From NCBI GenBank assembly GCA_046497275.1, contig JAWOFX010000115.1, forward strand, positions 1 through 30,470: 30,470 bases of DNA. Direction: 5' to 3'. The DNA comes from Promethearchaeia archaeon. Its GTDB lineage: Archaea > Asgardarchaeota > Lokiarchaeia > Sigyniarchaeales > SOKP01. Position numbers and translations under genes: made by a program. Within the stretch, counting starts at the first letter, position 1. Every line of letters begins with the position of its first letter. Positions 1,407-20,389 of this stretch are shown in pieces. The notes beneath the pieces were generated by a model. That model had not been told where the DNA came from. It saw only the letters and a program-made list of their open reading frames with translations, and did not search any database.

Positions 1407-4370
1407 ATGAGTTACAGCTATAGTCGTACGAAATTAATTGAAAAAATCAAATTTGGATTACTCAGCCCTGATGAGATTCGTAAAATGTCTGCCGCGAGAA
1501 TTATCACGGCAGATACATATGATGAAGATGGGTTGCCTATTCCGTCGGGACTAATGGATCAGCGACTAGGGACGATTGAACCCGGTCAAAGATGCCAAAC
1601 GTGTGGGAATCTCGTGAGTAACTGCATGGGCCATTTCGGGCATAGATAAAATTGGCTAAATTTTATCGCCCAAATCGAATTGGCACGTCCGGTTATCCAC
1701 GTAGGCTATGCGAAAAAGGTCCTAAAAGTTTTGAGAAGTGTTTGTCCTGAGTGTAGTCGCCTAATGCTAAGTGACGAGGCCCGAGAAAAGCACCGTGAGG
1801 AGCAAGTAACACATCGTAGGATTTATCACGAAGGTGATGAGGATATTACGAAGATTGTATTTAAGAGCGCCCGAAAAAATAAGGTATGCCCGTTCTGTGG
1901 TGCAAAAAAGAAAAAAATAATTCTTGAAAAACCTACTACGTTTTATGAAGAAGAAGAGGCAAAAGGTTCTCGGAGATTGACCCCAATCGAGATTCGGGAA
2001 CGATTGAAAAAAATGACCGATGCGGATCTTCGGATTTTAGGAATTTCTCCTAAAAATGCGAGATTAGAATGGGTGATTTTCATGGTTTTACCAATTCCCC
2101 CGGTGTGTGCTCGACCATCAATTACATTAGACAGCGGTATTCGTTCTGAAGATGATCTAACCCACAAATTAGTAGATGTGATTAGAATTAATCAAAGATT
2201 ACGGGAAAATATTGATGCAGGGGCACCTCACTTAATAGTTGAGGATTTATGGGAGCTTCTTCAATATCATATTACTACTTATTTTGATAATCAAGTGTCT
2301 GGAATCCCTCCAGCTCGTCATCGCTCCGGAAGAGCCTTACGTACCCTTACTCAACGATTAAAAGGCAAGGAAGGTCGTTTCAGAAGTAATTTAAGTGGAA
2401 AAAGAGTTGATTTCTCTGCTCGAAGTGTAATCTCACCCAACCCACATATAAGTATCAATGAAGTCGGAGTACCAGAAGAGATCGCGAAAATACTTACTAT
2501 TCCAACGAATGTGAATGATTGGAATATTGAACAAATGAAACAATTAGTCTTAAATGGACCTAATAAGCATCCTGGAGCAAATTATATTATACGAAACGAT
2601 CGACGCAGAATAGATCTTCGCTATGTGAAAAATCGAAAAATTATCGCAGATATGCTTGCACCGGGCTTCACGGTTGAGAGGCATTTAAATGATGGCGATC
2701 TTGTACTCTTTAATCGACAACCCTCACTTCACCGAATGTCAATTATGGCACATGAGGTAAAAATCATGGAGGGGAGAACCTTCCGACTAAATCTTACTGT
2801 CTGTCCTCCATATAATGCTGATTTTGATGGAGATGAGATGAATCTTCATGTCCCTCAAAGCGAAGAGGCGAGAACTGAGGCAGAACTCCTTCTTAAAGTC
2901 CAAGAGCATATCTTATCACCCAGGTTTGGAGGTCCTATTTTAGGAGGCATTCAAGATTTTATTTCAAGCGTATTTCAATTCACCAGTAAGGATTCTCTTT
3001 ATAATGAAAAAAATACGTTAAAGCTTCTTTATATGGGAAATATTTTTGATAACCATCCAGATTTTAAATTGGAGGATTTAGAACCCGTAGTGACAGATCC
3101 CGAGCCAATGTATTCAGGGAAGCAAATCTTTAGTACTCTTCTTCCAGATGATTTGAATATTCGAGTACGCTCAAAATTTTGTAAGAAGTGCTTTACAAAA
3201 CCTGGAGAGGAATGCAAGGAGGAGGATTGTGAATTTGATGCGTATGTCTCGATTACAAATGGAGAGCTGGTAACGGGAACGATTGACGAGAATTCCTTTG
3301 GTGCGATGCAATCAAATAGTATTTTACAGAGGGTTATCAAAGATCATGGAAATGCTCGAGGAAGAGAATTCCTCGATAGTGCCACCCAGATGTTATTATA
3401 TGTCATTCGTCAAAATGGAATGACGATGGGACTTGATGAGGTTTTTGTAAAAGGAGAAGCATTTGAAGAGATACAAAAAGTGTTACATGATTCTACTGAA
3501 GAATCGAAACGCCTTATTAAAGCTTTCCGAGAAAATGATACTGACGTGTTGCAAAGAGCACCTGGGAGGTCATTGAAAGAGACTCTTGAATTACGGATTC
3601 GGCAGGTACTTGCTGAAGCACGTAAAAAAGCTGAAGAAATTGCTGCGAACTATATTGGAGACGAAGCTCATTCCGTTATCATGACAAAATCAGGAGCTCG
3701 AGGAAATATACTTAATCTTGGACAAATGTCTGCTGTTGTGGGACAACAAGCAATAAGAGGTGAAAGAATCAATAGAGGATATACCTCAAGAACATTACCT
3801 CATTTTAAAGTAGATGATCTTACTCCTAAAGCACGAGGATTCGTAGAACAATCCTATAGGAATGGATTAGACCCCTCTGGATTCTTTTTCCATGCTATGG
3901 GTGGCCGAGAAGGTCTTGTAGATACCGCAGTACGTACTAGTACATCAGGATATATGCAAAGGCGTTTAGTGAATGCCTTACAGGATATGGTCATTGAAAA
4001 CGATGGAACCGTGAGAAATGCTGACAAAAATGTCATTCAATTTGATTTTGGAGATGATAATATTAATCCTCAACATACCGATCATGGAGATGCGGTGAAT
4101 TTAGATGTTCTTCTACTTAAAGCTCAAACCCTGGATACCAATGAAATTAAAGAAGAATTAAAACATGTAAAACCTGAGAAACAAGAAAAATCGAAACCAA
4201 AAGAGAAAAAAGAAGAAGTGAAAGAAAAAGGGAAGGAAAAGGGGAAAAAAGTTCCAACTGAAAATCAAATGCAAGATGAATTTGAAAAAGAAACCGGAAA
4301 AAACGCTATTTGGCAAGGAAAAATAACTAAACAATATAAAGAATGGAGAGAAGAAAACTATGGAGTATAA
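1407..4370 (+). CDS. rpoA1: DNA-directed RNA polymerase subunit A' (Rpo1N), two exons 1407-1643 + 1674-4370, 977 aa after splicing
   Basis: N-terminal [16 protein letters not shown], clamp Zn site CQTC..CMGHFGH joined to [30 protein letters not shown], catalytic [10 protein letters not shown], bridge helix [15 protein letters not shown]. The ORF track splits it into 1407..1649 and 1680..4370. Confidence 0.97.
1644..1673 (+). other. 30-nt BHB-type (tRNA-splicing-endonuclease) intron in rpoA1
   Basis: Insert AGATAAAATTGGCTAAATTTTATCGCCCAA, with in-frame TAA at 1647-1649. Central helix GGGC(1638-41)/GCCC(1668-71), 5' bulge AT^A, inner 9-bp stem, 3' bulge AA^A. Removal restores His-Ile of GHFGHIELARP. 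Confidence 0.9.
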
Positions 4371-4388
4371 ATGGAGGTTTATAAAATA

Positions 4389-5582
4389 ATGGCAAAAATA
4401 ACCCAAAAAGTAATTACTGAAAAATTAGAAGAATTACGTGAAGATGGAATTCCTAATGATTTAATTGTTGAAATTAAGGAAAAACTAAAAGATGTAGACC
4501 TTGAAGAGGAACAATTAGAGTATCTTTTGAATAAAGTCTATATTAATTATAATAATGCTATAGTTGAGGCTTCCGAACCAGTAGGAACAATTGCTGCTCA
4601 ATCCATCGGAGAGCCAGGAACTCAGATGACATTAAGAACCTTTCATTACGCGGGAGTCGAAGAATTCTCAGTTACACAAGGATTACCTCGACTAATTGAG
4701 ATTGTTGATGCCCGTAGATTTCCAAGCACTCCAAATATGACGATTTTCCTCACGGATGAATATCGAAAAACCGAGAAAGAAGCAATTAAAGTTCATAATA
4801 GAATTGAGCAGATACGAATCGAGCAAATAACCCATGATGTTGATTTGGATTTTGTAGATTGGAATATTATTATTAATTTAATCCCTGAAATTTGCGAAAA
4901 TAAGGGAATAGATATTGACGAGATTCCAGAAGTATTAAAAAGATACAAAAAGAAGGGAACTATTAAACGAGAGGGTAATTCTATAATCATCGATCCTGGA
5001 ATAGAGGATCTTCAGAAACTCCAGAAACTAAGAGAAAAAATATTGAAAAAAGTTGTAAAAGGGGTACGAGGAATTAAAAGAGGGCTATTAACGCCCGCAG
5101 AAGACAATAGTGAATGGATTATTAAAACAGAAGGGACAAATCTATCAGGAGTAGTTCAAATTGAGGGAGTCGATGCGGCTCGAACAGTGTCAAATCACCT
5201 TCATGAAGTGGAAAAATTATTCGGTATCGAAGCAGCACGAAGCTTAATTATTAATGAAGCTAAATCCGTTTTAGAACAACAAGGGTTAGATGTTGATTTA
5301 CGCCATCTTCTCATTCTCGCTGATTTAATGTGTAATACGGGAACTATTCAATCTATTGGTAGACATGGGATCTCTGGATCAAAGACTAGTGTGTTCGCAA
5401 GAGCAGCGTTCGAAGTGACAGTAAATCAATTGCTTGACGCGGGGATATATGGGGAGGAAGAGAGGCTATTAGGAATTCCTGAAAATGTTATAGTTGGACA
5501 GGTATGCCCAATCGGCACAGGACGAGTAGAGATACAGTTTGATATTGATAAAAATTTAGAATTGATTAGAAACAAGCAATAA
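4389..5582 (+). CDS. rpoA2: DNA-directed RNA polymerase subunit A'' (Rpo1C)
   Basis: [55 protein letters not shown]. The start is placed at ATG 4389 because GGAGGT (4373-78) is its SD; the track start at 4371 is probably too early. Confidence 0.96.
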
Positions 5583-5655
5583 CATAAAAAATTAAAATAA
5601 CAAAACATTTTTTTACTTACTTAGTAATTCTAATTAATGTACATGTGATTTATTT

Positions 5656-6024
5656 ATGGCAAAGAGAAAAAAAACACAAGAGCTTGACTTATCGCGGAAA
5701 AAGGAAAAAGTTTTTGATATCGATATAAATATTAAAGTCGCTCTCAAAACGGGAGAAATAGTTTATGGAAAAAATCAAGTACTAAAGAACTTGAGAAAAA
5801 ATCCATTTAAAATGATAATTGTAGCTAATAATTGTCCCTATGATTTAATGAGTGAATTAGAACATTATAACTCATTATTGGAAAATAAAATATATATCCA
5901 TAAGTACAAAGGATCTAGCTGGGATTTAGGCCTTGCTTGTGCGGAAGGCTACATGATTTCAATACTCGGAATCTATGATTATGGCGACAGCGATCTTCAA
6001 AGTTTAAAAAGTAAAGGTAATTAA
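5656..6024 (+). CDS. rpl30e: 50S ribosomal protein L30e
   Basis: IKVALKTGEIVYGKNQVLK..IIVANNCP..YKGSSWDLGLAC; canonical position after rpoA2. Confidence 0.92.
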   Translation: MAKRKKTQELDLSRKKEKVFDIDINIKVALKTGEIVYGKNQVLKNLRKNPFKMIIVANNCPYDLMSELEHYNSLLENKIYIHKYKGSSWDLGLACAEGYMISILGIYDYGDSDLQSLKSKGN

Positions 6025-6052
6025 AATATATCAGAAATTGAGATAATTTTTT

Positions 6053-6532
6053 ATGATAAAGAAAAACATTAAATTAGACAGAGAATCTTTGGAATTGATT
6101 TCTCTTTTTAACAACATCTCTGGAGCTATAATTAAAGATTGTATAGTGTATGATACTCCTCAGAACTCTGATGAAGTTATTATTTTCCTGGTTAAAAAAG
6201 ACGATGTTGGAAAAGCCATTGGGAAAAATGGAGAACATGTGAAAGATTTAACGTCAAAACTGAACAAAAAAATAGATGTCATTCCTTTTTCACAACAATT
6301 GGAACGATTTATCAAATATATCTTGAATACGACCAAGAACTCAATTAAAGTCAACAATATTGAGATTAAAGAAAATAGGAATGAAAAACGCACGGTAATT
6401 ATAACAGTTCGACCTCAAGACAGAGGAAAAGCAATAGGAAAGGACGGTACGATGATTAAAAAGGTTAAAATGCTTGTAACGAGGCATTTCGAAGTCGATA
6501 ATGTAATAATAGACACTCGTCCATTAAATTAA
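6053..6532 (+). CDS. nusA: Archaeal NusA (two KH domains)
   Basis: GKAIGKNGEHVK and GKAIGKDGTMIK KH loops; canonical position between L30e and S12. Confidence 0.93.
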   Translation: MIKKNIKLDRESLELISLFNNISGAIIKDCIVYDTPQNSDEVIIFLVKKDDVGKAIGKNGEHVKDLTSKLNKKIDVIPFSQQLERFIKYILNTTKNSIKVNNIEIKENRNEKRTVIITVRPQDRGKAIGKDGTMIKKVKMLVTRHFEVDNVIIDTRPLN

Positions 6533-6547
6533 AACTCTGATTATAGT

Positions 6548-6564
6548 AAAACTGTTTTTATCTA
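6548..6564 (+). promoter_or_regulatory. Putative internal BRE/TATA promoter for rps12-rps7
   Basis: AAAACTGTTTTTATCTA, near-identical to the motif upstream of rpoA1. Confidence 0.35.
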
Positions 6565-6580
6565 ATTTTCAATATATTAT

Positions 6581-6611
6581 CCGATGAGTAGAGGAATACT
6601 TACTACATCGG
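6581..6611 (+). promoter_or_regulatory. GC-clamped stem-loop in the nusA-rps12 spacer (candidate rps12 leader element)
   Basis: CCGATG(6581-86)/CATCGG(6606-11) plus AGTAG/TTACT in an otherwise very AT-rich spacer. Confidence 0.45.
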
Positions 6612-6681
6612 GATTTTCAAAAATTTTAAGTTATATGATGCCTTATATGTATTAAATTATTTATTAAATTGTCGATATAAA

Positions 6682-7110
6682 ATGCCGAAAGGATTATATG
6701 CTGCGCGAAAATTGAAAGAAAATCGGAAGAAATTTCGTTGGAGCAAAACAAAATACAAACGAAAAAAGCTGAAATTAAAACAAAAAGTAGATCCGCTTGA
6801 AGGCTCTCCGCAGGCAAGTGGTATTGTACTTCAAAAAGTTGGTCGAGAAAGTAAACAACCTAATTCAGCTATTCGAAAATGTGTACGTGTCCAATTAAGA
6901 AAAAATGGAAAGTCTATTACAGCTTTTCTTCCCGGAGATGGTGCGCTCAATTTCATAGATGAGCATGATCGAGTGATCGTCGAAGGGATTGGTGGTGCAA
7001 AGGGAAGAGCAGTTGGAGATTTACCAGGAGTCCGATGGAAAGTAGTTAAAGTAAACGGCGTTTCTTTAGATGCTCTGATAAAAGGAATAAAAGAAAAACC
7101 ATTGAGGTAA
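6682..7110 (+). CDS. rps12: 30S ribosomal protein S12 (uS12)
   Basis: [42 protein letters not shown]. Confidence 0.98.
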
Positions 7111-7115
7111 AAAAA

Positions 7116-7730
7116 ATGACAGAAAGAGCCCCTGTAAAATTATTTAATCAATGGTCCTTTGATGATGTGGAAGTAAAGGATTGGACCCTTGAACGATATA
7201 TCAATCTTAAACCAATTATTATTCCCCATAGTTGCGGACGCCATAATAAAAAAACATTCTGGAAAACGAAGAAGGTAAACATAATCGAGAGATTTATTAA
7301 TCGATTATTGGCACCTGGATTTATGGATTCCAAAATAAAAGGTCATAAAAGTTCATATCAATCGGGTAAGAAGAATCGTATATTGAAAGCAATTAAAGAT
7401 GCGTTCAGACTTATTAATTTAAAAACTGAAAAAAACCCAATTCAAGTGTTAATTGATGCGATTTGTAATAGTGCGCCTCGAGAAGAAACCACAAAAATTG
7501 CAATGGGAGGTATCTCCTATGCAAGTGCCGTTGATATAGCTCCACAGAGACGAGTAGACTTAGCCATCAAATTTATTGTGCAAGCTATTGGGAATCGGAC
7601 ACATAATAATATAAAAAGTTTTGGAGAAAACATTGCCCAAGAATTAATGATGGCAGCTCAAAACAGTCAGGATTCTCGTGCAGTGAAGAAAAAGGACGAA
7701 GTGGAACGAATAGCAGTTTCCGCTCGATAA
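7116..7730 (+). CDS. rps7: 30S ribosomal protein S7 (uS7)
   Basis: NPIQVLIDAICNSAPREETT, AVDIAPQRRVDLAI, KKKDEVERIAVSAR. Confidence 0.97.
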   Translation: MTERAPVKLFNQWSFDDVEVKDWTLERYINLKPIIIPHSCGRHNKKTFWKTKKVNIIERFINRLLAPGFMDSKIKGHKSSYQSGKKNRILKAIKDAFRLINLKTEKNPIQVLIDAICNSAPREETTKIAMGGISYASAVDIAPQRRVDLAIKFIVQAIGNRTHNNIKSFGENIAQELMMAAQNSQDSRAVKKKDEVERIAVSAR

Positions 7731-7939
7731 ATATTTTATTAAATTCTCTTTATTACCTTAACTATTATTTATAATTTCACTATCTCTCATTCATAATTTA
7801 TAGCATATCACCCCTATATTATTAAATATGTTATTAGATTAATGAGGAATCAAAAGTTATAAGCTAATTTTTATATAATCAAAAAACATATTATTTTATA
7901 AGCGAGTTTTAAAATTAGGTAAGGTAGATAATAATAGGT

Positions 7940-9919
7940 ATGGGTTCCGACAAAAAGATTTCTGAAACTTTGGAAAAACAATTAAAAGCGATAGGGCAGA
8001 AAATCAGATTAGATCTGTTAAAAAATTTACATCTTTCTGATACGGCCTTATCATTCTCAGATCTTCAAAAATCAATAATGCTCTCAGAGTCTAATTCTGT
8101 TAATCTTACATTTCATCTGAATTCGCTTAAAGAGGCTAAGTTAATATGGGCGAGTAAAGAAGGGTATCATATAACAGATATTGGAAAGCAAATACTTGAG
8201 AAAGTAATAGATATCGAACACATCATAAATAAAAAAAATAAGAATTTAGTTATCAGAACTTCTAAATATTCAACTGAACCCTTCAATATAAAAAACGTTA
8301 AAGAATATTTGATGCGAGAAGCAGATATGGATCCTTTTCTTGCAGATCAAATGGCTAAACTTGTGGAAAAAAGATTATCAGAGACAAACGTTGAGTATCT
8401 AACTGCCCCTCTAATGAGAGAGTATATTAATGCTATTTTATTAGAAGAAGGTCTTGAAGAATTTCGACATAAATTAACTCGATTAGGAATCCCTCCCTAT
8501 GATGCTGAAAAGTTATTTGATATGAATTCTGTAGAACCTATGGATTATATTAAAAAGTTAGGTTCAGAAAGTTCTGAGCAATTTCTCTTGTTAAATTTAT
8601 TACCGAAAAAGCTCGCTGATCTTTATTTATCTAATAAAATCGCTTTATTAAATTTGAATACATGGTCGCTGAGGCCCTTGAGTATTTTTTTGAATTTTGA
8701 GACGATTCTTAATAACTCATCTCAACACATTCAAGACCCTTCTTTAGATTATACAAAATCACATAATAGAGCTTTAAATATTTACTATTTTCTTCAAGGA
8801 TTAGCGCCTTTTTTTTCTAATAATGTATTACTCTATAATTTTGCCTCTCTATCCTCCTACATTAAAAATAATGCGGACTTGACTATTTTTATAAATACTT
8901 TTCTTTCTCTTGTTCGATGCTTAAATAAATCTTTTCAATCGAAACATGCATTTTCTTTGACTAATTCAAAATTACAGCAAGACTCTCAACCTTCAATTTT
9001 TCATAGAATTGTTTTAGAATTAAAGGATTATTTAGATAAATCTAATCGAACTCATAATAGCTTTTTAAATTTAATGCCACAAATATTAATTGATTATACC
9101 TCTGTAGATAAGAAAGATATCGAATATTTTTTTAATTCACTATTCCTTAAATATGGCTCACCAATTTTTTTTGATGGGACACAAAGCTTAATTAATTCTG
9201 ATTTAATTAGTTCAAGCAAAGAGATTTTATCATTTCCAGGGGAAATAGTTTTAGATAAGGTTTTAATTAATCTCTATTCTATTGCTCAAGAATCAAATCG
9301 AAATGATTCAGTATTTTTTGAAATATTGAATCAACGTGTAAATTCTGTTTTTTCCTTATATGACTATAAAAAAAAATTTGTAGAAAGAAAATTAAAAAAT
9401 TCGAGTTTATGGAATAAATTTCTTGAAAATTTTTTGAATTTTAATAAGAATGAATGGACCTTGAGATCAATTAAATCAATAAGTTTCCTTGGACTTAATG
9501 AAGCTGTAAAATCTCATTGTGGAATTGAACTTGACAGAATAGAATCGAGTCAAAAATTTGCTTTCAAAATTCTAAACACGATGAAAGAGATAATCACAGA
9601 AAGGAATTCTCTCTATAATGAGAAGTTTTGTTTATCTCAACCTCACCAGGGATCTTATTTGCAAAGTATTGATGATGGATATAATGAATCTATTGACTTA
9701 GATATTAATACTGAAAACAATCTGAGTTTGCTTATACGGAAAAGTTCAAAATTAACATTAGATGAAAAAATAGCCATTTATAGAAAATTTAGTAAAGTAA
9801 TAGATGGGGGGTTTTTAGTTTCAGTGAATGATGAATATTCAGAACCTAAAAAGGCTCAACAATTATTTAAGACTATAATGGACTCAAAACTCCTTGCTTT
9901 TAATATTTGTTACAATTAA
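7940..9919 (+). CDS. Winged-HTH (ArsR-like) + ATP-cone + degenerate class III ribonucleotide reductase (NrdD)-like fusion protein
   Basis: N-terminal wHTH (RLDLLKNL..LSFSDLQ..LTFHLNSLKEAKLI..GYHITDIGKQIL), ATP cone (VIRTSK..EPFN..LTAPLMREYINAILLEEG), NrdD-like core segments (SISFLGLNEAV, FAFKILNTM, RKFSKVIDGG). No C-terminal Zn/glycyl-radical domain. Confidence 0.75.
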   Translation: MGSDKKISETLEKQLKAIGQKIRLDLLKNLHLSDTALSFSDLQKSIMLSESNSVNLTFHLNSLKEAKLIWASKEGYHITDIGKQILEKVIDIEHIINKKNKNLVIRTSKYSTEPFNIKNVKEYLMREADMDPFLADQMAKLVEKRLSETNVEYLTAPLMREYINAILLEEGLEEFRHKLTRLGIPPYDAEKLFDMNSVEPMDYIKKLGSESSEQFLLLNLLPKKLADLYLSNKIALLNLNTWSLRPLSIFLNFETILNNSSQHIQDPSLDYTKSHNRALNIYYFLQGLAPFFSNNVLLYNFASLSSYIKNNADLTIFINTFLSLVRCLNKSFQSKHAFSLTNSKLQQDSQPSIFHRIVLELKDYLDKSNRTHNSFLNLMPQILIDYTSVDKKDIEYFFNSLFLKYGSPIFFDGTQSLINSDLISSSKEILSFPGEIVLDKVLINLYSIAQESNRNDSVFFEILNQRVNSVFSLYDYKKKFVERKLKNSSLWNKFLENFLNFNKNEWTLRSIKSISFLGLNEAVKSHCGIELDRIESSQKFAFKILNTMKEIITERNSLYNEKFCLSQPHQGSYLQSIDDGYNESIDLDINTENNLSLLIRKSSKLTLDEKIAIYRKFSKVIDGGFLVSVNDEYSEPKKAQQLFKTIMDSKLLAFNICYN

Positions 9920-9943
9920 AATATTTAATAATAGAGATGGATT

Positions 9944-11111: not shown

Positions 11112-11393
11112 ATGAAATTTCCTAAAGAAGTAAATAGATACTGTCCAAATTGCCACAAACATACTCGACATTCCGTGAGTAAATATAAAGCGGGAAAGGA
11201 ACGAAAGCTTAATCACGGAAGAAGACGAGTTGAAAGGAAGAAGAAAGGATATGGCTCCTTTCCAAAAGAAATCTTCCATAAAAATGCCAAAATCAATAAA
11301 AAAACGGTCCCGATATTTGAATGTAGTGAATGTGGAAAGAAACATTACGGGAAATCTTATAGAGTTAAAAAATTTGAATTGCAACAAGTTTAA
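11112..11393 (+). CDS. rpl44e: 50S ribosomal protein L44e (eL42)
   Basis: RYCPNCHKHTRHSV..GRRR..KKGYGS..IFECSECGKKH. Confidence 0.95.
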   Translation: MKFPKEVNRYCPNCHKHTRHSVSKYKAGKERKLNHGRRRVERKKKGYGSFPKEIFHKNAKINKKTVPIFECSECGKKHYGKSYRVKKFELQQV

Positions 11394-11449
11394 GTTCTAT
11401 CCATTAAATGTAAATAATATAAATAAAAAACAGAGTTTAGTTGTCAAAA

Positions 11450-11656
11450 ATGCCTCAAAAGAAAAAGTTGAAAGAATTAATCCCTCAACCACAAAGTAGA
11501 TTTCTAAGGGTTAAATGTCTGAACTGTGGAAACCAGCAAGTTATTTTTGGATGTGCTGCCACAGATGTTGAGTGTTTAGTATGCGGAAAAACGCTTCTTC
11601 AATCTACTGGTGGAAAGGCTCGTATTCTTACTAAAATTTTAGAAGTTCTTTCTTAA
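11450..11656 (+). CDS. rps27e: 30S ribosomal protein S27e
   Basis: [47 protein letters not shown] 11450 is preferred over TTG 11441. Confidence 0.96.
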
Positions 11657-11672
11657 AAACTACCATCTAGTT

Positions 11673-12032
11673 TTAAATTATCTTAACATTTTCTAAAGGT
11701 ATCCACCCTGCTTTATTAGCTTTGTTTGAAACCCAAATCCATTCACTTTCTTCGAATTCAATTATAAATTCTTCACCTTTCTTAACATTTAGTTCAATAG
11801 CATAATAATCTCTGAGTGCTGTCGCCTGAAGCTTTTCTCTGTCTATTTCTAGAAAATATTCTGGAATCCATCCTACATTTTCTTGCTTAGTTTTACACCA
11901 AACCCAACCTATCCAATTAGTTTCTCTAAACTCTACTTCCATTGTTTCTCCCTCTTTAACTCTGATTGGATCAGAAGTAGATGCTTTATAGTCTTTAATT
12001 ACTACACATTTTTTTTTAGACAAGTTCTTCAT
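11673..12032 (-). CDS. Tandem SH3-domain protein
   Basis: Two repeats of the SH3 pattern: VIKDY..IRVKEGE..GWVW..GWIPEYFL and ALRDY..ELNVKKGE..EWIW..GWIPLENV. Confidence 0.85.
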   Translation of the reverse strand: MKNLSKKKCVVIKDYKASTSDPIRVKEGETMEVEFRETNWIGWVWCKTKQENVGWIPEYFLEIDREKLQATALRDYYAIELNVKKGEEFIIEFEESEWIWVSNKANKAGWIPLENVKII

Positions 12033-12060
12033 AAGAAATTATATAGTTTTTTTAAATGTT

Positions 12061-12080
12061 CGTGAAACAACTCTTTCACG
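12061..12080. promoter_or_regulatory. Perfect 7-6-7 palindrome, candidate operator of the SH3 gene
   Basis: CGTGAAA-CAACTC-TTTCACG lies between a TATATA element (about 12089-94) and the SH3 start codon at 12032. Confidence 0.45.
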
Positions 12081-12152
12081 TCTGAACCTATATATCAGAA
12101 AAATATCTGGATATTATGAGAATGAAGTAAAGTTAGCAAATGATCTAGGATA

Positions 12153-12491
12153 TTAATATTCTCTCCACGTTTTCTTACATTTTAAACAGCGGAAAAAAGT
12201 TGTACTTGGTTCATCCGCACTTCTCGTCTGTTCCTGCCACGTTTCTGCTTCATTAAATCCGCATTTTGGGCATATTCTCGATACAATTGGGTGAACTGAT
12301 ATTTTATCATCTTGATTGACTACAATTAGGTTTTCTTCAAGTTTCTTTTTCTTCTTCGCAATTATTTTTTGTTTTTTTACATCATCAGGTTCCAATTTTC
12401 TTTCGTATCCGCATCTGCAAAATAGATATGATGTTCCATTTTTCGTTCTTTTTCTGAGTAATCCACCGCAATCTGGACAAAACTCTACCAT
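12153..12491 (-). CDS. tfs: Transcription factor S (TFS, RpoM/TFIIS-like)
   Basis: FCPDCG..C.CGY and CPKCG..QTRSADEP.TTFFRC.KC with the acidic hairpin intact. Confidence 0.96.
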   Translation of the reverse strand: MVEFCPDCGGLLRKRTKNGTSYLFCRCGYERKLEPDDVKKQKIIAKKKKKLEENLIVVNQDDKISVHPIVSRICPKCGFNEAETWQEQTRSADEPSTTFFRCLKCKKTWREY

Positions 12492-12506
12492 CTTCCTATT
12501 AATAAT

Positions 12507-12830
12507 TTACTTTTCAAGCAGTTCTTTCTTTAACTCATATAGTTTTCGGTAATATTTGAAGTTCAGTTTATTCATATCTTGAATTATTTGAGCATCAATT
12601 ACCTTTTCACCACTTGTTTTTATGCGTAATTCACCTATCACATTTATTAAATCTCCTTCATCAAATTTTAATTCCATATCTTTTAATTTCACGGGGATTT
12701 GTCCAGATTTATCGTCTAAGACGAAGGAGCTCTCATCCCCGATATCCTTAATATAACCTGTTATTTGAATCTTTAAATCCTCATTCTGAATATCGTTTAT
12801 AATTCTCTGTTTTGCAAATTGATTTTCCAT
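12507..12830 (-). CDS. Single OB-fold protein, RPA14/RPA3-like replication protein A small subunit
   Basis: IQITGYI..FVLDDKSGQI..GDLINVIG..IDAQIIQDM followed by a C-terminal helix; replication-gene context. Confidence 0.7.
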   Translation of the reverse strand: MENQFAKQRIINDIQNEDLKIQITGYIKDIGDESSFVLDDKSGQIPVKLKDMELKFDEGDLINVIGELRIKTSGEKVIDAQIIQDMNKLNFKYYRKLYELKKELLEK

Positions 12831-13027
12831 GTTAACTCATCTTGGTTTAATTATTAACTTCCAATTAGATAATAATAATAATAGTTATTAAATAAAAGTT
12901 CAATATAAATAATTAGATACAGAATTTTTAGTAAAAGATTATTAAATCAGTAATATCAAACTTATTAATTAAAAAAATCTTATTTCCTATTATTATTTGA
13001 AATAAAACCGAATTATGGAGCAGTAAT

Positions 13028-13831
13028 ATGACTTTTAAGTTAAAATTAGAAAATAGTCGGATTTTGAAAGGGATCGTAGAAACATTATCATCTATCATTG
13101 ATGAGACGGAATTTATGGTAACTCCCGATGAATTTACCATAACGGCTATGGATCCAAGCCGAATTTGTCTACTTAAGCTAACCATCAAAAACGAAGATTT
13201 TGATGAATATGAATGTCAAGAGGATACTAAAGTGGGTTTAAATTTAGACGATTTAGATAAAATATTGAAGAGAAGTGCAACAAATGATTCCATTGAAATT
13301 GATTTTAAAAAGAGTGATAATAAAATTAAAATTGTAATGCAACGAGAGGGAATGACTCGTTCTAGAACCTTTAGTTTAGCACTTTTAGATATTGATATTG
13401 AAGAGATTCCCATGGACAATTTACTGGCAATTGAATATCCTTCCTCTTGGGTAATAGATCCTGAATTTTTGGTTGAGGCGATTAAGGATGCTGAAATATA
13501 TTCGGAGATATTAAATCTTAAATCTGAAGAAGGAAAAGGGTTAACATTTAGTTCCTCTGGTCAAATAGGAGAGATGGTATATAGTCTGGGAGTTGAAGAT
13601 TTAATTGAAACAGAGATCACTGGTACAAGTACGGGAGCATATAGTTTAACATTTTTAAAAGCAATACTTAAAATAGCCTCAATTACAGAGAAACTTGAAA
13701 TTTCACTAAAAACTGACCATCCCCTTAAAATGATTTTTAATCTACTTGAAGGAGGAGAATTAAATTATTTTCTAGCTCCACGAGTAGAAGAGGCTGAGTT
13801 TGACGAAGACGAAGACATGGATGAGTTTTAA
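13028..13831 (+). CDS. pcn: DNA polymerase sliding clamp PCNA with acidic C-terminal tail
   Basis: TAMDPSRICLLKL, GLNLDDLDKILKR, YSLTFLKAILK, YFLAPRVE. Confidence 0.96.
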   Translation: MTFKLKLENSRILKGIVETLSSIIDETEFMVTPDEFTITAMDPSRICLLKLTIKNEDFDEYECQEDTKVGLNLDDLDKILKRSATNDSIEIDFKKSDNKIKIVMQREGMTRSRTFSLALLDIDIEEIPMDNLLAIEYPSSWVIDPEFLVEAIKDAEIYSEILNLKSEEGKGLTFSSSGQIGEMVYSLGVEDLIETEITGTSTGAYSLTFLKAILKIASITEKLEISLKTDHPLKMIFNLLEGGELNYFLAPRVEEAEFDEDEDMDEF

Positions 13832-13954
13832 TATCCCAATTTAACATATCATCTATATTTTAGTAATTCTCTTAACTCCCATTTTATTTAGTTGTAATAT
13901 TTTTTTATTTTACAATAACCATTTTCTCATTAAAGATATGAGGTATAGAAAGAT

Positions 13955-15130
13955 ATGATGAGTTCGGAATCAATTTCTCCAGAATTAATTCAGCATTATC
14001 CATGGCTTCCTTCATTAAAGAAGGTATATGAAGATATCGGCAATCAAGATCCGTTAAAATTTACGATGAACGTTCTTTCAAAACAAAAGAATAATCTTAA
14101 AGAGAGAATCTTAAACCTCTTTGAAGCAGTATTCAATAATATTGAATTTATAGAGAATTATCAAATTGATGAAACAAATATTTATCTCTACTTAATGTTA
14201 AGAATTTTATTATTCATCCTTAATAATGATATTTTAACCAATCGAATAGCAAATTTATATTCGAAAATCCAATATGATGAACTATTAGATGAAAATGATT
14301 TTAATCTTTACAAAATCCTCCAAGATCTAAATTTAGATATTAAATATTACCAAAATCCTATTCAATACCGTGTAAATAAAATAAAGGATCAAACAGAAAT
14401 ACAAAAAACAAATTTCCGAATTCACTATATTGATTATTTAAAACTATCTTCAAATTTGAGGGATGAGTATAGAAAATTAGTTAATAATCCCCTTTCAGAG
14501 GGGTATGTCTTTATTCTAAAAAGAAGATTAGTACGTCTTCTTCAAGAATACGTCCGTGGTAAATTTTTGGAGTTAAAAGAAAAAGATAAACAAAATCTTG
14601 AGCTACTTAAGTCTAAACTGCTCGAGATTGAAGAATTTGAACATATTTATAATATAATTAAAAATCAATGGGAATTAATTAAGGAGGAATACGATTATTC
14701 AATTGATTTTAAATTTAAGGAAGGAGCAGAGATATCAACCATCTTTCCTCCATGTGTGAAAAATATACTTTCTCAAGCGAAGGAAGGACAAAATTTAACT
14801 CATAATGAAAGGTTGTTTCTAACATTTTTTTTACATGCATTAGAATATCCTGTTGAAAAAATAGTTGATATCTTTTCTACTTTGCCAGATTTTGACAGAG
14901 ATAAAACCACTTACCAAGTAGAGTTTGCAAAAAAGAAAGGTTACGATCCTCATTCATGTGAAACCTTAAAGTCATTAAGTTTATGTAAGGCAGAAAAATA
15001 TAAAGATGAATTATGTTTAAAGGGATATTACTCCAAAAAATTAGATAAGACAAGAAAGATTAGACATCCACTTTTTTATGTAAGTTTTAATCAATTTAAA
15101 TTGTCCAAAGATAAAAATGACCGATCATAA
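13955..15130 (+). CDS. priL: DNA primase large subunit
   Basis: HYPWLPS N-terminus, FPPCV..LTHNERLFL, 4Fe-4S Cys set (PPC, HSC, SLC, ELC), RHPL. Confidence 0.93.
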   Translation: MMSSESISPELIQHYPWLPSLKKVYEDIGNQDPLKFTMNVLSKQKNNLKERILNLFEAVFNNIEFIENYQIDETNIYLYLMLRILLFILNNDILTNRIANLYSKIQYDELLDENDFNLYKILQDLNLDIKYYQNPIQYRVNKIKDQTEIQKTNFRIHYIDYLKLSSNLRDEYRKLVNNPLSEGYVFILKRRLVRLLQEYVRGKFLELKEKDKQNLELLKSKLLEIEEFEHIYNIIKNQWELIKEEYDYSIDFKFKEGAEISTIFPPCVKNILSQAKEGQNLTHNERLFLTFFLHALEYPVEKIVDIFSTLPDFDRDKTTYQVEFAKKKGYDPHSCETLKSLSLCKAEKYKDELCLKGYYSKKLDKTRKIRHPLFYVSFNQFKLSKDKNDRS

Positions 15131-16391
15131 GTTTTTAAAACGTCTTTTTCAAGCCTACTATAGAGAAAATAAGGAAAAAATTCCATTAATTAGTTCTTTT
15201 ACTCAACGAGAATTCGGCTTTATCCCATGGAAAGAAGAGACTATGATGATACGGCATATAGGATTTAATGATATAGATGGGCTAAAAACGTATTTTATTA
15301 ATAACGCTCCAAGACATGCATATTCAAGTGGATCATTATATCTCATGCCTGAGAATTCGGATATGGATCAAAAGCAATATATCGGATGCGATTTGATAGT
15401 AGATATTGATGTTGACCATTTTTATACGCCATGTAAAGAAGATCATGATATATGGATTTGTAAAGACTGCGATACTATTGGAAAAGGGATGACGAAAAAA
15501 TGTGATAAATGTGGAAGTTTAAAGCTTAAAACAATTAATTGGATATGTGATGAGTGTTTAGATAGCGCTAAAAATGAGATTAAAAAATTAATATATGATT
15601 TTCTCATTCCTGATTTTGCGATACAACCAGAAGAAATGCATATTGCCTTCTCTGGACACAGAGGCTATCATTTAAAGGTTGAAAATAAAAGAATTAGAAC
15701 TCTCGATAGCGACCAAAGAAGAGAAATTGTAGATTATTTGACAGGTCATAACATTTCTTTTGAAATCCTTGGGTTGGAAAAAAGAGCCTTAAATATTTAC
15801 GGACTAATCCGTGAAAATTTAGACTGGTCCAGAAAAATAATAAATAAAATGATCAATATGCTTCAAACCTATTCTGATGAGCAGTTAACAAATTTTTTAA
15901 AAAGAATTGGATTGAATTCGAATGTGATAAAAAGTTTCTTAAATTCTAAAGACAATTTTTTATATACCCTTAAAGTTGATGATCATAACTTATGGAGCAT
16001 AGAGGGCTTTGATATAATCACATGGAAGAAATTTTTAAGGGGTATTGTTGATGAAGTGGGTGTGGAATTAGATGAACCAGTCACTATTGATATTCACAGA
16101 TTAATCCGATATCCGGGGACTTTACATGGAAAAACAGGATTTAAGGTTCAAGAATTACTAATTGACGAATTAGAAGCATTTAATCCCTTAAATGAGACGA
16201 GAGATGATCTAGATCCTATTATTTTCAGGAGTTCTGAAAATACACATAAAATAAAAATTATTGAAGATAAAGTCCCCCAAACCAGAATAAAAGGAGAGAC
16301 ATACGGTCCTTATGAAAATGGTGAGATTGTTGAAGTTCCAAATCATATTGCAATCTTTCTCTTATGTAAAGAGGTTGCTGTGTTAGAATAA
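15117..16391 (+). CDS. priS: DNA primase catalytic (small) subunit with Zn-ribbon insertion
   Basis: REFGF, DLIVDIDVD, FSGHRGYHL, DEPVTIDIHRLIRYPGTLHGKTG; overlaps priL by 14 nt. Confidence 0.95.
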   Translation: MTDHKFLKRLFQAYYRENKEKIPLISSFTQREFGFIPWKEETMMIRHIGFNDIDGLKTYFINNAPRHAYSSGSLYLMPENSDMDQKQYIGCDLIVDIDVDHFYTPCKEDHDIWICKDCDTIGKGMTKKCDKCGSLKLKTINWICDECLDSAKNEIKKLIYDFLIPDFAIQPEEMHIAFSGHRGYHLKVENKRIRTLDSDQRREIVDYLTGHNISFEILGLEKRALNIYGLIRENLDWSRKIINKMINMLQTYSDEQLTNFLKRIGLNSNVIKSFLNSKDNFLYTLKVDDHNLWSIEGFDIITWKKFLRGIVDEVGVELDEPVTIDIHRLIRYPGTLHGKTGFKVQELLIDELEAFNPLNETRDDLDPIIFRSSENTHKIKIIEDKVPQTRIKGETYGPYENGEIVEVPNHIAIFLLCKEVAVLE

Positions 16392-16451
16392 TTAATAATA
16401 AATTAGTATAAACACTTAATTATTGTATTAGTAATAAATAATTACGATTTT

Positions 16452-17129
16452 ATGAATCTCCTAAAAGAATACAAAAACTTATATGATCATTGGCTTGAAG
16501 AATTTCAAAAAGAAGAGTTAACCGTTTTTTCGCAGAATATCTTTGCAGATTATAAGAAGTTTTTGGAATTCATAAAAAATTTCGAAGTAAAGGAAAAAAA
16601 TGAGATAAAAAAAGAAATTATTGAGACATACAAGCAGAATGTGAAGTTCTTATTTGATGATATTTTAAAAATGCGAGAAATTAAAATAATTAATTCTGCC
16701 TTAACCCTTAAAGAACTTGATATCGACTCATTATTTGAAGCAGAAAAGTTATTTTTCCAAAATTTGGTCGCATCGATTAAAGGATTTCAAAAAGTTAAGT
16801 CTCTCTCGATTAATGAGGATGATAAGATATTCACATTCCCAGAAATTAAATCGGTTATTAATAAGGAGAAGTTAGAAGATGATCAAGCAAAACCTATAGA
16901 AAAAAATTTAAAAGAGACATTAAAAGATGAGAATATTAAAGAGAAATCTGAAATGCACGAGCAAATTTCTTATAAGGTGATTAGATTTATAAAAAACACT
17001 CCTGCATTAGTGGGTATAGATCTTTTAAATTATGGGCCTTTTAAGAAAGAAGATATCGCAAATATACCCCAAGAAAACGCAAAAATACTCGTAAATGAGA
17101 AACTAGCAGAATATATTGAAATAGATTAG
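16452..17129 (+). CDS. GINS complex subunit, Gins15/Gins51 type
   Basis: Helical A domain plus C-terminal B domain (IRFIKNTPALVGIDLLNYGPFKKEDIANIP.ENA); follows priS. Confidence 0.85.
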   Translation: MNLLKEYKNLYDHWLEEFQKEELTVFSQNIFADYKKFLEFIKNFEVKEKNEIKKEIIETYKQNVKFLFDDILKMREIKIINSALTLKELDIDSLFEAEKLFFQNLVASIKGFQKVKSLSINEDDKIFTFPEIKSVINKEKLEDDQAKPIEKNLKETLKDENIKEKSEMHEQISYKVIRFIKNTPALVGIDLLNYGPFKKEDIANIPQENAKILVNEKLAEYIEID

Positions 17130-17317
17130 CTTTTTCCAAATCTTTCCTTAAATTCTTCCTTAAAATATTTGATTCTGTATTTTTGATATTTATCGATTGG
17201 AGAATATTTTGGTGGCCACGGATTAATTAATTCTCCACCGCAGTATCTACATTTCAACTCCGGATTCTTTAATCCATATCTTCCACAATCCTTACATTTT
17301 TTTAAATATCGTGTCAT
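17126..17317 (-). CDS. nop10: H/ACA RNP protein Nop10
   Basis: KKCKDCGRY.L..C.YCGG..PPKYSP.DKY.KYR; downstream of aIF2-alpha. Confidence 0.93.
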   Translation of the reverse strand: MTRYLKKCKDCGRYGLKNPELKCRYCGGELINPWPPKYSPIDKYQKYRIKYFKEEFKERFGKS

Positions 17318-17332
17318 TTTTCGAAATATATA

Positions 17333-18157
17333 TTATTCTCTACTGAAATCATAAATCGCTCCATATTCTTCTGCTTTTTCCTCTACAACTTCTAAAGCAT
17401 CAGATAAAATATTTTCAGCGTCCAGATAATCTTTCGAAATAATTTCTAATCGATAGAAGGGTGCAGCTATATAGGAAATCTCTAAATTTCTGGTATTCTT
17501 GGGATTTTCTAATACTTTTTCTGCTTCACTCAGCGTCTCTTTTATAAGATCCACACCGTTCGGATCATCAAATCTTAATTTAATTTTTCCAACAATATTC
17601 ACGGTGGAAATCTCCACATTCTCATTAACAATTCTTAAAAAGGTTTGCTTTATGTCTTCAGATATATCTGTAAGATTATCCAATATTTCTTTTCCGTTTT
17701 CTTTGAGTTCTTCAATCGCTTCTTGATAATTATCATTAAAATGTGCTAATATGGGAAATCCAATTTTTTCGTAGGCATCATCTAATGTCATATCATCATA
17801 TTCATTACATAAAAATTGGAGTAAATTCTCAAGTTTGACTGCATATTTCCATTCCTTCATTTTTGTTTTGCGTTGAGCGGCATTGGTGCGTCTAAGAGAA
17901 AGATCCACATGACCTTTTGAAGGATCCACTCTAGTTACTCTCAAAACCATCCTTTGTCCTTGTCTAACATGATTTCTAATATTTTTTACCCAACGACTAG
18001 AGATTTCTGAGATATGAATCATACCTTTAGCATGCTCTTCTGAGGGTAAACCTTCATAATCTAATAATTCCACATAGACATATTGATTTTGAATATTTTC
18101 AACTCGCCCTACCACAAAATCTCCTTCCTGTGGAAATCGGGTTCTTGATTTCGGCAT
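17333..18157 (-). CDS. eif2a: Translation initiation factor 2 subunit alpha
   Basis: FPQEGDFVVG, S1 domain GMIHISEISSRWVKNIR, VDPSKGHVDLSLRR, YIAAPFYR. Confidence 0.96.
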   Translation of the reverse strand: MPKSRTRFPQEGDFVVGRVENIQNQYVYVELLDYEGLPSEEHAKGMIHISEISSRWVKNIRNHVRQGQRMVLRVTRVDPSKGHVDLSLRRTNAAQRKTKMKEWKYAVKLENLLQFLCNEYDDMTLDDAYEKIGFPILAHFNDNYQEAIEELKENGKEILDNLTDISEDIKQTFLRIVNENVEISTVNIVGKIKLRFDDPNGVDLIKETLSEAEKVLENPKNTRNLEISYIAAPFYRLEIISKDYLDAENILSDALEVVEEKAEEYGAIYDFSRE

Positions 18158-18319
18158 TTTACTTTTTCTCCGTTATAGTTTAATTCTTTGATTTCCAATT
18201 AAATAATATTGTTATATAAAACGATCCTTAATTTTTTACTTTTATTCTTTAAATGCTATAATTTTTTTTCTATCATACTTATATAATAGTATTAAATCGA
18301 ATCAAAAACTCTCTTTAAA

Positions 18320-18760
18320 GTGATTTTTATACCTAACTGGTTTATTCATATTAAATGGGCACAGATGGCTGGAATCCCCCTCAAAATAGCCGAATTTGTG
18401 AATAGGAGCATTGATTATGGGTCGGATTGGGCAGTAGAACATGAAGATGAGGGGACTCAAGAAGGTGTATTTGAGAATAATATCCACCGTCAGTTAGTAT
18501 ATTTTTACAACAAAGATATTGATAAGAAAAACTTTGTAAAGGCATGTTATCTCCATCATCTTTTAGATTATTTTAAAGAAACCTATGTAAATATCAATAA
18601 TGAGGACTTAGTATTTCAGAAATTTCTTGAACATAAAGTAATCTCTAAAATCTCTTATAAAAATAAGCGAGAAATTAGTTTTGAAAAAGAAATCTCGGAA
18701 TTATTTCAGTTAATTAAAAATCAAAAAAAAACGTTGTATTCTGATTTAGAAATTATTTAA
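18320..18760 (+). CDS. Hypothetical protein, possibly a metal-binding helical hydrolase-like protein (N-terminal PNWxxH, HHLLD)
   Basis: 146-aa ORF with His-rich motifs. The start is uncertain (GTG 18320 or ATA 18329). Confidence 0.6.
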   Translation: MIFIPNWFIHIKWAQMAGIPLKIAEFVNRSIDYGSDWAVEHEDEGTQEGVFENNIHRQLVYFYNKDIDKKNFVKACYLHHLLDYFKETYVNINNEDLVFQKFLEHKVISKISYKNKREISFEKEISELFQLIKNQKKTLYSDLEII

Positions 18761-18985
18761 GATTAACAATAATCTTGCTTATATCTTTTTATGACTCATC
18801 CTTTAACTAATCTCTATTAGATTACAATAGACCTCAAATTATTATTATCGATAATTGTTAAATTAATCTTGTTTTTTCTTCTTGCAGACTCGTTAACATT
18901 TATTAATTTTCCGTAAAAAATTTAAATTCCACATCATTTAAATAGAATATCACATCTAAAGTGATTATCTAATCTGATAAAACTG

Positions 18986-18999
18986 AAATTGTTTTATTA
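18986..18999 (+). promoter_or_regulatory. Putative BRE/TATA promoter of tef1
   Basis: AAATTGTTTTATTA about 57 nt upstream of ATG 19056; resembles the rpoA1 and rps12 upstream motif. Confidence 0.3.
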
Positions 19000-19055
19000 G
19001 ATTGAAGATTATTATAATTAAATATTTAAAATAAATAAAACAAAGGTAATTAAAA

Positions 19056-20389
19056 ATGGCCGATAAAAAACCACATTTGAATCTAGTTATAATAGGGCAT
19101 ATTGACCATGGTATGCTATAACCGTTTCGGTTAATTAGCCCATAAAGTCAACCATGATGGGTGCCCTGTTAATTAAAACAGGTGCGGTAACAGACAGAGA
19201 AGCACGAGAATTAGAAAAAATTGCGAAAGAATTTGATAGAGATTCATGGTCATATGCATACGTATTTGATAAATTGAAAGAAGAACGACAGAGAGGAATT
19301 ACAATAGATCTTGCCTTTAGAAAATTCGAAACACCCAACAAATATTTCACAATCATTGATGCCCCTGGTCATCGAGACTTTGTCAAAAATATGATCACTG
19401 GTGCAAGTCAAGCTGATGCAGCAATCTTAGTAGTTTCCGGAAAGAAAGGAGAAATGGAAGTTGGTATCGCAGCTAATGGTCAAACCCGTGAGCACGCCTA
19501 TTTAGCACAGACCTTAGGCGTTAAACAATTGGTTGTGGCCATTAATAAGGCAGATGTCTGGGATTATGATGAAGATAGATATAAAGAATGTGTACAATCA
19601 GTATCAGCTCTTTTAACAAATATTGGTTTTCCTGTAAAAAAGATTCCGTTTGTACCTGTAAGTGGATTACTTGGGGAGAACCTTACTGAAAAAACCGATA
19701 AAATGCCTTGGTACGATGGTCCTAGTTTAATAGACGCAATTGATGAATTTCAATTACCAGAAAAACCGACTGGTAAACCCTTACGAGTACCTATTCAAGA
19801 TGCATATAGAATTAAAGGTACTGGTGTGGTTCCAGTGGGTAGGGTTGAAACTGGTGTATTAAAAAAAGGTGACCAAATTCTTATTCAACCAACCGGCTTT
19901 AAAGGTGAAATTCGAAGTATAGAGATGCATCATGAAGAAATTCCCGAAGCAGAACCGGGAGATAATATAGGATTTAGTATCCGAGGTCTTACATTAGAAG
20001 ATGTACACAGAGGAGATGTTTTAGGACGACCTGATAATCCACCAACCGTTATTACACCTAAGGGGAGTTTTACTGGACAAGTCATTGTAATTTGGCATCC
20101 TACTGCAGTTGCACAAGGTTATACTCCAGTTGTTCATGCTCATACCGCTCAAGTTGCAGCGAAATTCGTTGAGCTTAAAAAGAAACTTGACCAGAAGACG
20201 GGCGCTGTAATCGAAGATAACCCGAAGTTTATCAAGAAAAACGAAGCTGCTATTGTCACGTTAAGTCCTATCAAGAAATTGTGCATAGAGAAATATGAAG
20301 AGATTCCAGAGATGGGTCGATTCGCGGTACGCGACATGGGTAGAACCGTAGCTGTTGGTATAGTAAAAGATCTTGAAACTGGAGAGTAA
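19056..20389 (+). CDS. tuf: Translation elongation factor EF-1 alpha, two exons 19056-19113 + 19146-20389, 433 aa after splicing
   Basis: MADKKPHLNLVIIGHIDHG|KSTMMG P-loop, ERQRGITID, DAPGHRDFVKNMITGASQAD, NKAD, GRFAVRDMGRTVAVG. The ORF track misses exon 1 and starts at 19154. Confidence 0.97.
19114..19145 (+). other. 32-nt BHB-type intron in EF-1alpha
   Basis: Insert TGCTATAACCGTTTCGGTTAATTAGCCCATAA, with TAA at 19119-21 and a frameshift. Central helix ATGG(19108-11)/CCAT(19140-43), bulges TA^T and AA^A, inner hairpin, outer exon-exon helix. Removal gives GGT AAG TCA ACC (GKST). Confidence 0.92.

Follow-up and report, generated by a model that had tools for sequence, protein, structure and literature searches.

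Can an archaeon produce its RNA polymerase and its elongation factor EF-1alpha only by way of the enzymes that splice its tRNAs, and would such a dependence serve to regulate the two proteins? This question is raised by a 30,470-nt stretch of DNA from a Promethearchaeia archaeon (contig JAWOFX010000115.1 of assembly GCA_046497275.1; hereafter the window), in which the genes encoding RNA polymerase subunit A' (rpoA', or Rpo1N) and EF-1alpha are each interrupted by an insert of about 30 nt. The window takes up an entire 30.5-kb contig (C83) within a 3.85-Mb metagenome-assembled genome (MAG), G000, which has a completeness of 98.9% and comprises 188 contigs with an estimated contamination of 4.4%; throughout, G, L, P and C numbers are our analysis labels for genomes, contig loci, protein entries and contigs. 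[quoted passage not shown] Here, the reading frames, predicted folds and comparison with relatives indicate that both inserts are very probably genuine archaeal BHB introns in protein-coding mRNAs, and that the organism would depend on its tRNA-splicing enzymes for both proteins. A regulatory gate appears improbable.

Anatomy of the two mini-introns

The open frame of rpoA' runs to ...CMGHFGH, passes through a single R codon into TAA, and the continuation IELARPV... is picked up at position 1674, such that the conserved motif is split at GHFGH/IELA. In EF-1alpha, the frame reads MADKKPHLNLVIIGHIDHG (19056-19112), followed by ML and a stop (19119-19121), while KSTMMG... follows 32 nt on in another frame; this insert therefore splits the P-loop at GHIDHG/KST and also causes a frame shift. 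The two halves of rpoA' abut exactly on the Pfam profile RNA_pol_Rpb1_1 (Table 1). For both genes the minimum free energy (MFE) fold of the RNA around the insert is itself a BHB motif, with z-scores of the folds between -3.0 and -4.0. Judged by genome-wide frequency, the chance of an equal or better BHB at a fixed site is 2.5e-6 for the 30-nt insert and 5e-7 for the 32-nt insert. Sequence, Pfam junctions and folds thus agree on two mini-introns of 30 and 32 nt in unrelated genes, as had been proposed.

The folds also place the splice sites. Cutting after the second bulge base in rpoA' gives GGG CAU/AUC GAA, and the same rule in EF-1alpha gives GGU A/AG UCA, which are precisely the junctions predicted by homology (GHFGH-IELA and GHIDHG-KST); an alternative placement of the rpoA' intron at 1645-1674 yields an identical mRNA. 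Features typical of an archaeal BHB intron, namely the bulges and central helix, the predicted junction product, the flanking helices, covariation and the presence of the enzymes in the host, were found for both introns. As with the intron of the crenarchaeal gene cbf5, both interrupt coding frames, and their unspliced messages cannot yield full proteins.

The interrupted genes themselves appear sound. Their exons are intact, with 95-99% amino-acid identity to those of the congener G002, and the genome holds one copy each of rpoA' and EF-1alpha. Since these single copies give unspliced messages that reach a stop codon no more than three codons past the 5' splice site, RNA polymerase and EF-1alpha would depend on the tRNA-splicing enzymes. 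The inserts are also found outside this assembly: the EF-1alpha intron recurs on a 9.5-kb contig of a separate NCBI assembly record that is 100% identical over 2.2 kb, and the rpoA' intron on a JGI contig of 96% DNA identity, where a single C-to-U change keeps the affected pair as G-U.

The sequence features that the original prediction had singled out as common to the two introns fared unevenly. An AAA 3' bulge is indeed present in both, extended by UC in the MFE fold of rpoA'. A stop codon near the 5' splice site is likewise present in both, although the notion of a designed early stop does not hold, since chance alone expects one in an AT-rich insert. The ending GCCCA(TA)A occurs literally in both introns, yet out of register: in rpoA' its GCCC forms the central helix, whereas in EF-1alpha its GC closes the inner stem and CCAU forms the central helix. 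We therefore rejected it as a common 3' signal; the central helices of the two introns have no common sequence, and the likeness arises because both endings pair with G-rich exon codons.

Table 1. Positions in the window of the interrupted genes, their introns and the elements of the predicted folds, followed by the five further introns of the genome G000 (given by contig)
Feature	Position or contig	Strand	Description
rpoA' (Rpo1N) exon 1	1407..1643	+	79 codons, ending in ...CMGHFGH; from translation and Pfam RNA_pol_Rpb1_1 (profile 2-73)
rpoA' BHB intron, 30 nt	1644..1673	+	In-frame TAA at 1647-1649; predicted cuts AU/A and AA/A; same site occupied by homologous introns in 9 further genomes of the class; covariation
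rpoA' full BHB motif	1630..1684	+	MFE fold equals centroid, z = -3.2; 91.7% of cells paired in 6 homologs
rpoA' outer helix	1630-1637/1677-1684		7 bp, one U-U mismatch
rpoA' central helix	1638-1641/1668-1671		GGGC/GCCC
rpoA' 5' bulge	1642-1644		AUA
rpoA' intron stem	1645-1653/1659-1667		9 bp; loop 1654-1658
rpoA' 3' bulge	1672-1676		AAA(+UC); 5 nt in MFE fold, relaxed
rpoA' exon 2	1674..4370	+	898 codons and stop; Pfam Rpb1 domain 1 (profile 74-312) and domains 2-5
EF-1alpha exon 1	19056..19113	+	19 codons and first base of Lys codon (MADKKPHLNLVIIGHIDHG + A)
EF-1alpha BHB intron, 32 nt	19114..19145	+	Inside P-loop coding sequence; predicted cuts UA/U and AA/A; 6 further genomes have a homologous intron at this site
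EF-1alpha full BHB motif	19102..19151	+	MFE fold equals centroid, z = -3.0; RNAalifold on 6 homologs
EF-1alpha outer helix	19102-19106/19147-19151		5 bp; C at 19107 unpaired
EF-1alpha central helix	19108-19111/19140-19143		AUGG/CCAU
EF-1alpha 5' bulge	19112-19114		UAU
EF-1alpha intron stem	19115-19124 with 19128-19133 and 19136-19139		10 bp
EF-1alpha 3' bulge	19144-19146		AAA
EF-1alpha exon 2	19146..20389	+	(A)AG TCA ACC... = KSTMMG..., 414 codons and stop; Pfam GTP_EFTU beginning at profile position 16, followed by domains 2 and 3
AMP/thymidine-phosphorylase-like gene	C171		31-nt intron, split DKHS/TGG; Pfam abutment
UbiA	C111		30-nt intron; profile 3-48 and 53-231
Cold-shock gene	C20		30-nt intron; Pfam abutment
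Enolase-superfamily gene	C141		31-nt intron; profile 14-156 and 161-218
RNase HII			31-nt insert, split DEAG/RGP

Recurrence, covariation and patchiness among relatives

Comparison with 161 genomes of the class revealed that introns at both sites recur in related lineages. The rpoA' gene was matched in 149 genomes, ten of which carry an intron at GHFGH/I (G019, G020, G118, G159, G110, G075, G067, G107 and G073, besides G000), as do contigs of the Logan collection; three others carry only an intron 4 nt downstream (50-85 nt) and one an intron at codon 42, giving a total of 14 genomes with mini-introns at or near the rpoA' site. EF-1alpha was matched in 147 genomes, and seven of these, from three genera, share the exact site (G000, G154, G128, G150, G122, G125 and G075). 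The interior of the G000 intron is visibly like those of G122 and G154, with a common AACC-UUU(U)CG-GUU core. Four further genomes have 29-31-nt inserts elsewhere in EF-1alpha, namely G017 (between D and H), G080 and G126 (near codons 11 and 15) and G077 (codon 96), which brings the number of genomes with mini-introns in the EF-1alpha N-terminus to 11; among these four off-site inserts, only those in G017 and G077 were confirmed to form a BHB.

The homologous introns further support the proposed structures. Across six 30-nt rpoA' introns, 91.7% of cells are paired in the proposed structure, compared with 25-47% when the partner is slid, and 8 of the 20 pairs have changed on both sides, a level reached in none of 500 shuffles. 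The covariation extends into the coding sequence: the wobble base of the exon Gly codon (GGG or GGA) changes in step with the intron base it pairs with, as A-U in three, G-C in two and G-U in one of the introns. In a similar manner, RNAalifold run blind on six EF-1alpha homologs returned the same BHB with five compensated pairs.

The distribution of the introns is patchy. G002, which belongs to the same genus, is free of both, and two metagenome contigs (L066 and L067) with 94.7% DNA identity to the window are missing exactly the 32 nt of the EF-1alpha intron. Together with the recurrence of the sites across genera, this would fit introns whose BHB fold is maintained by selection while they are repeatedly lost or gained.

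The short rpoA' stretch around GHFGH/I is an intron hot spot. Downstream of the intron at that site, G107 and G073 have a second insertion 4 nt away. In rpoA' of G107 (L091, G107:C62:7865-8255, minus strand), introns of 30 and 35 nt surround a 4-nt micro-exon, AUAG, and the canonical BHB of the second intron (AUAU AG/A ... GUAU AA/A) forms only once the first is gone, since the central helix of the second bridges the first splice junction; the arrangement implies ordered splicing of the twin introns. An alignable 65-nt insertion is present in G073 (L095). The downstream site, GHFGHI E/LA, is also occupied in G101 (L092, 85 nt), G120 (L100, 85 nt) and G018 (L046, 50 nt), and each intron there has a canonical AUAU/(G/A)UAU central helix. 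Inteins, recognized by the Pfam families Intein_splicing and LAGLIDADG, are found in rpoA' or rpoA'' of several close relatives (G002:C31, with an rpoA' open frame of 1496 aa; P0126; P0136; L109, 3832-5013), and the rpoA' and rpoA'' genes of the window are free of them; in this family, therefore, intervening sequences at the protein level and at the RNA level occupy the same genes.

Splicing enzymes and the intron class of the genome

The enzymes that such introns would call for are encoded in G000, outside the window, in line with the earlier remark that no endA or rtcB gene is visible in it. Two EndA paralogs were identified. The one on C46 has the Tyr, His and Lys triad together with an insert that aligns with the crenarchaeal L1/CSL loop, and its best match in the Protein Data Bank is the Aeropyrum pernix endonuclease (entry 3p1z, chain B); in the one on C168 the catalytic His is absent. 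An (alpha-beta)2 EndA with an L1 loop, tied to a broad substrate range, has been assigned to Asgard archaea (Kaneta 2018, PMC5829648). The two paralogs of G000, one of them without the catalytic His, fit a host enzyme of this (alpha-beta)2, broad-specificity type. The genome further encodes two RtcB proteins and Archease, all in uninterrupted genes, and one rtcB adjoins the Archease gene (convergent, 37 nt apart; G000:C145:7959-9723) in a compact ligase-cofactor locus.

In the mechanism that we propose, folding of the pre-mRNA would bring the final bases of the exon into pairing with the intron's 3' end, in a 4-bp helix that lies between two bulges. EndA, composed of the catalytic alpha subunit and the His-less beta-like paralog, would cut once in each bulge, and RtcB, aided by Archease, would join the exons, with the intron probably being circularised. 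With the exons joined, RNA polymerase subunit A' would regain GHFGH-IELA, and EF-1alpha its GHIDHGKST P-loop. We infer cleavage and ligation of both introns from the enzyme families present.

The tRNA genes of G000 suggest that these enzymes have ample other work. ARAGORN reported only 13 intron-less tRNA genes; permitting anticodon-loop introns raised the number to 25, a few of them dubious calls. It is probable that most tRNA genes contain several introns or are interrupted at non-canonical sites, and the low count fits a heavy load of tRNA splicing such as has been published for other Asgard lineages.

The two window introns are part of a wider class, as the original prediction had anticipated, and that class is small. 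A descriptor scan of the genome recovered both window introns along with other candidates, and at least seven introns are verified in G000, i.e. the two window introns and five further ones (Table 1), with many more in relatives; for most of the five, verification relied on the two halves abutting on one Pfam profile. One 29-nt candidate (C13-) was discarded, as Pfam identified two complete unrelated proteins and hence a plain gene junction. In a motif-plus-ORF census of the genome with a phase-shift control, frame-joining BHB-like sites showed no excess in the correct phase over the shifted phases (75 vs 98 and 85 in one run; 12 vs 17 and 11 in another). The signal is lost in the background of gene junctions, and the census cannot count as complete. 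Since no bulk excess was seen, the class should be small, on the order of ten and not hundreds, and we estimate about ten mini-introns in this genome. On visual comparison, the seven introns have no obvious mutual sequence similarity, which argues against their being copies of one mobile element. Two generalizations drawn from the window did not survive the wider set: intron positions range from codon 15 to codon 303 and so follow no 5'-proximal rule, and the hosts, which include genes of metabolism, lipid synthesis and replication, are functionally unrelated, leaving no specific link to expression genes.

The verified introns tend to lie in the most conserved motifs of their hosts (GHFGH/IELA, GHxDHG/KST, DKHS/TGG, DEAG/RGP and the cold-shock RNP motif; for G000, see also contigs C171, C102, C20 and C111). 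They often follow directly upon Gly codons, and the G-rich bases of these codons then make up the exon strand in the central helix (window 1638-1641 and 19108-19111). It is possible that constrained exon sequence preserves the BHB motif at such places, or that it aids intron spread.

As for the surroundings of the two genes, Pfam identified rpoA', rpoA'', L30e, NusA, S12 and S7 in the window, then replication genes (PCNA, primase and GINS) and eIF2-alpha, followed by EF-1alpha; an SH3-domain protein and an Arf-like GTPase are encoded as well. Between 7940 and 18157, the usual S7 - EF-2 - EF-1alpha order is disrupted: a gene for EF-2 was not seen in the window ORFs that were scanned, and this interval instead holds an NrdD-like protein with DUF7347, aspartate carbamoyltransferase, the SH3-domain protein, an intact TFS, PCNA, both primase subunits, GINS and eIF2-alpha. 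The presumed Asgard origin of the window is well supported by its proteins, because their nearest database relatives come from MAGs named as Promethearchaeota or Lokiarchaeota.

Weighing the readings and what they mean

The recurrence of the inserts bears first on whether they could be errors. In a MAG of 188 contigs with some contamination, an assembly error, a chimeric contig or decayed pseudogenes might be suspected; the same inserts in other assembly records and samples, the homologous inserts in many other genomes, the otherwise intact exons and the lack of a second copy of either gene make such an artefact exceedingly improbable. Equally improbable is that ribosomes hop over the inserts. 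In phage T4 gene 60, the bypassed gap begins with an early stop codon followed by a hairpin, and both inserts share this combination; however, they have no matching take-off and landing codons (CAT...AGA TAA...CAA/ATC in rpoA', GGT...ATA/AAG in EF-1alpha), and bypassing would leave the 4-bp exon-intron helix, the two bulges and the covariation unexplained. The covariation, with compensatory changes that reach into the exon, also speaks against the idea that the pieces are translated apart and then assemble, in the manner of archaeal A' and A'', since separate translation has no need of a BHB fold. Archaeal RNA polymerase subunits tolerate splits, which lends this idea some appeal, and a TTG at 1680 could start rpoA' exon 2. 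The TTG, however, is not conserved (exon 2 of G118 and G110 starts ATA GAG TTA or ATC GAA TTA), so that separate translation of this exon is unlikely, while EF-1alpha exon 2 has no start codon before MMG and would give a product without a P-loop, alongside an implausible 19-aa GHIDHG peptide. Taken together, we consider separately translated pieces very unlikely.

More weight attaches to the regulatory proposal, by which splicing by EndA and RtcB would be rate-limiting and dependent on growth state, tuning polymerase and EF-1alpha output to tRNA and rRNA maturation in the way of HAC1/XBP1 splicing. Several of its premises stand: the dependence on splicing appears real and obligatory, both genes are at the top of the expression hierarchy, an unspliced message ends almost at once and so gives no long aberrant product, introns at both sites persist in several genera, and a negative-regulator role was earlier proposed for the cbf5 intron (PMC2738675). 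The distribution of the introns nevertheless runs counter to it, as the nearest relatives do without them: G002 lacks both, the contigs of 94.7% identity lack exactly the EF-1alpha intron, and an intron at the same site is found in only 10 of 149 genomes for rpoA' and 7 of 147 for EF-1alpha. The functionally unrelated hosts and scattered codon positions in G000 point the same way. The parallel to HAC1/XBP1 is limited to the chemistry: as in that system, protein enzymes and not a spliceosome would take out a tiny intron (26 nt in XBP1), and the ends would be sealed by a tRNA ligase, the one used in animals being RtcB. It fails for the control: there, stress-activated IRE1 cuts twin stem-loops and splicing switches a C-terminus, whereas here the motif is a BHB and splicing would restore a conserved motif. 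EndA is a housekeeping enzyme for which we know of no switch or regulated activation, and no IRE1-type KEN (Ribonuc_2-5A) domain was found in the genome, a search for which the control genomes were uninformative. Such a gate is accordingly improbable in our view, and the splicing dependence looks like a tolerated, near-neutral or selfish state rendered harmless by efficient housekeeping splicing.

Obligate tRNA-type splicing, the reading that we favor, has points that weigh against it in turn. Both BHBs are somewhat relaxed, with the 5-nt 3' bulge in rpoA' and the extra unpaired C in EF-1alpha, and their cleavage by the host EndA is assumed. Searches of protein and contig collections turned up neither spliced RNA nor an intron-less transcript of this species, and a full-length EF-1alpha or RpoA' of 100% identity is missing from the protein database. 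The closest full-length EF-1alpha, at 99% identity, is encoded on genomic contigs of a sister lineage, the closest RpoA' entries are truncated calls that carry the intron too, and a search with the cold-shock protein returned only relatives of 93% and 64%. The exact 27-nt spliced EF-1alpha junction occurs once, in an unrelated intron-less organism. Finally, the neutral or selfish interpretation rests on patchiness, which counts against a conserved function and less against a lineage-specific one.

Among known systems, the nearest counterpart is the intron in cbf5 of Crenarchaeota (Desulfurococcales and Sulfolobales; Watanabe 2002, Yoshinari 2006, Yokobori 2009 = PMC2738675), likewise a BHB intron in a coding frame, whose removal a functional protein requires. 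Its hosts have a heteromeric EndA, as is predicted for G000, and its gain and loss among relatives are similarly patchy, with a speculative role as negative regulator already discussed (PMC2738675). The present introns differ in their occurrence in the Asgard phylum, in more central genes, in several genes per genome and not in one and, among relatives, at several positions within one gene. Compared with archaeal tRNA-type introns, they share the 3-nt bulges, 4-bp helix, half-exon motif, enzymes, small size and reported repeated gains, and differ in that the host is an mRNA, the exon half is codon-constrained, the exon wobble base covaries, and removal competes with translation. Up to 2020, a BHB motif was credited in the literature to "one mRNA", to which one new substrate from Haloferax was added (PMC7714728). 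The new substrate, the HVO_1309 mRNA of Haloferax volcanii, was confirmed in vitro (Schwarz 2020, PMC7714728), and it resembles the present case in being an mRNA that the archaeal splicing endonuclease acts on. No published report of mRNA BHB introns in Asgard archaea was found in the literature searched.

A practical consequence concerns databases. In many Asgard entries for EF-1alpha (409-411 aa) and RpoA' (868-887 aa), the gene call is cut short at the N-terminus (P0005, P0029, P0030, P0124, P0127, P0179 and others), and in the three that we opened (P0005, P0124 and P0127) the truncation is due to the rpoA' or EF-1alpha introns. Because gene callers truncate the intron-bearing genes in this way, marker-gene phylogenies and completeness estimates of Asgard MAGs are affected.

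For about two decades, the splicing of archaeal mRNAs by protein enzymes rested on essentially one gene, cbf5. Here, the same mechanism would be required for the catalytic subunit of the polymerase and for EF-1alpha in an Asgard archaeon, with introns that recur across the family. Nucleus-free cells would thus tolerate introns in their most highly expressed, translation-coupled messages, which bears on the argument that introns forced the nucleus, and the intron-bearing and intron-less sister lineages offer natural pairs for studying splicing cost and kinetics. A bolder view, to which we assign a low probability, is that the mini-introns of this Asgard family form a dynamic heritable population in core-gene mRNAs, recurring at BHB-competent, highly conserved codons and at times as twins 4 nt apart whose removal must follow a fixed order, and that in lineages with the introns the supply of polymerase and EF-1alpha could be kinetically coupled to the capacity of EndA, RtcB and Archease. 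If this were true, a primitive, nucleus-free form of splicing-dependent gene expression would exist in the closest archaeal relatives of eukaryotes.

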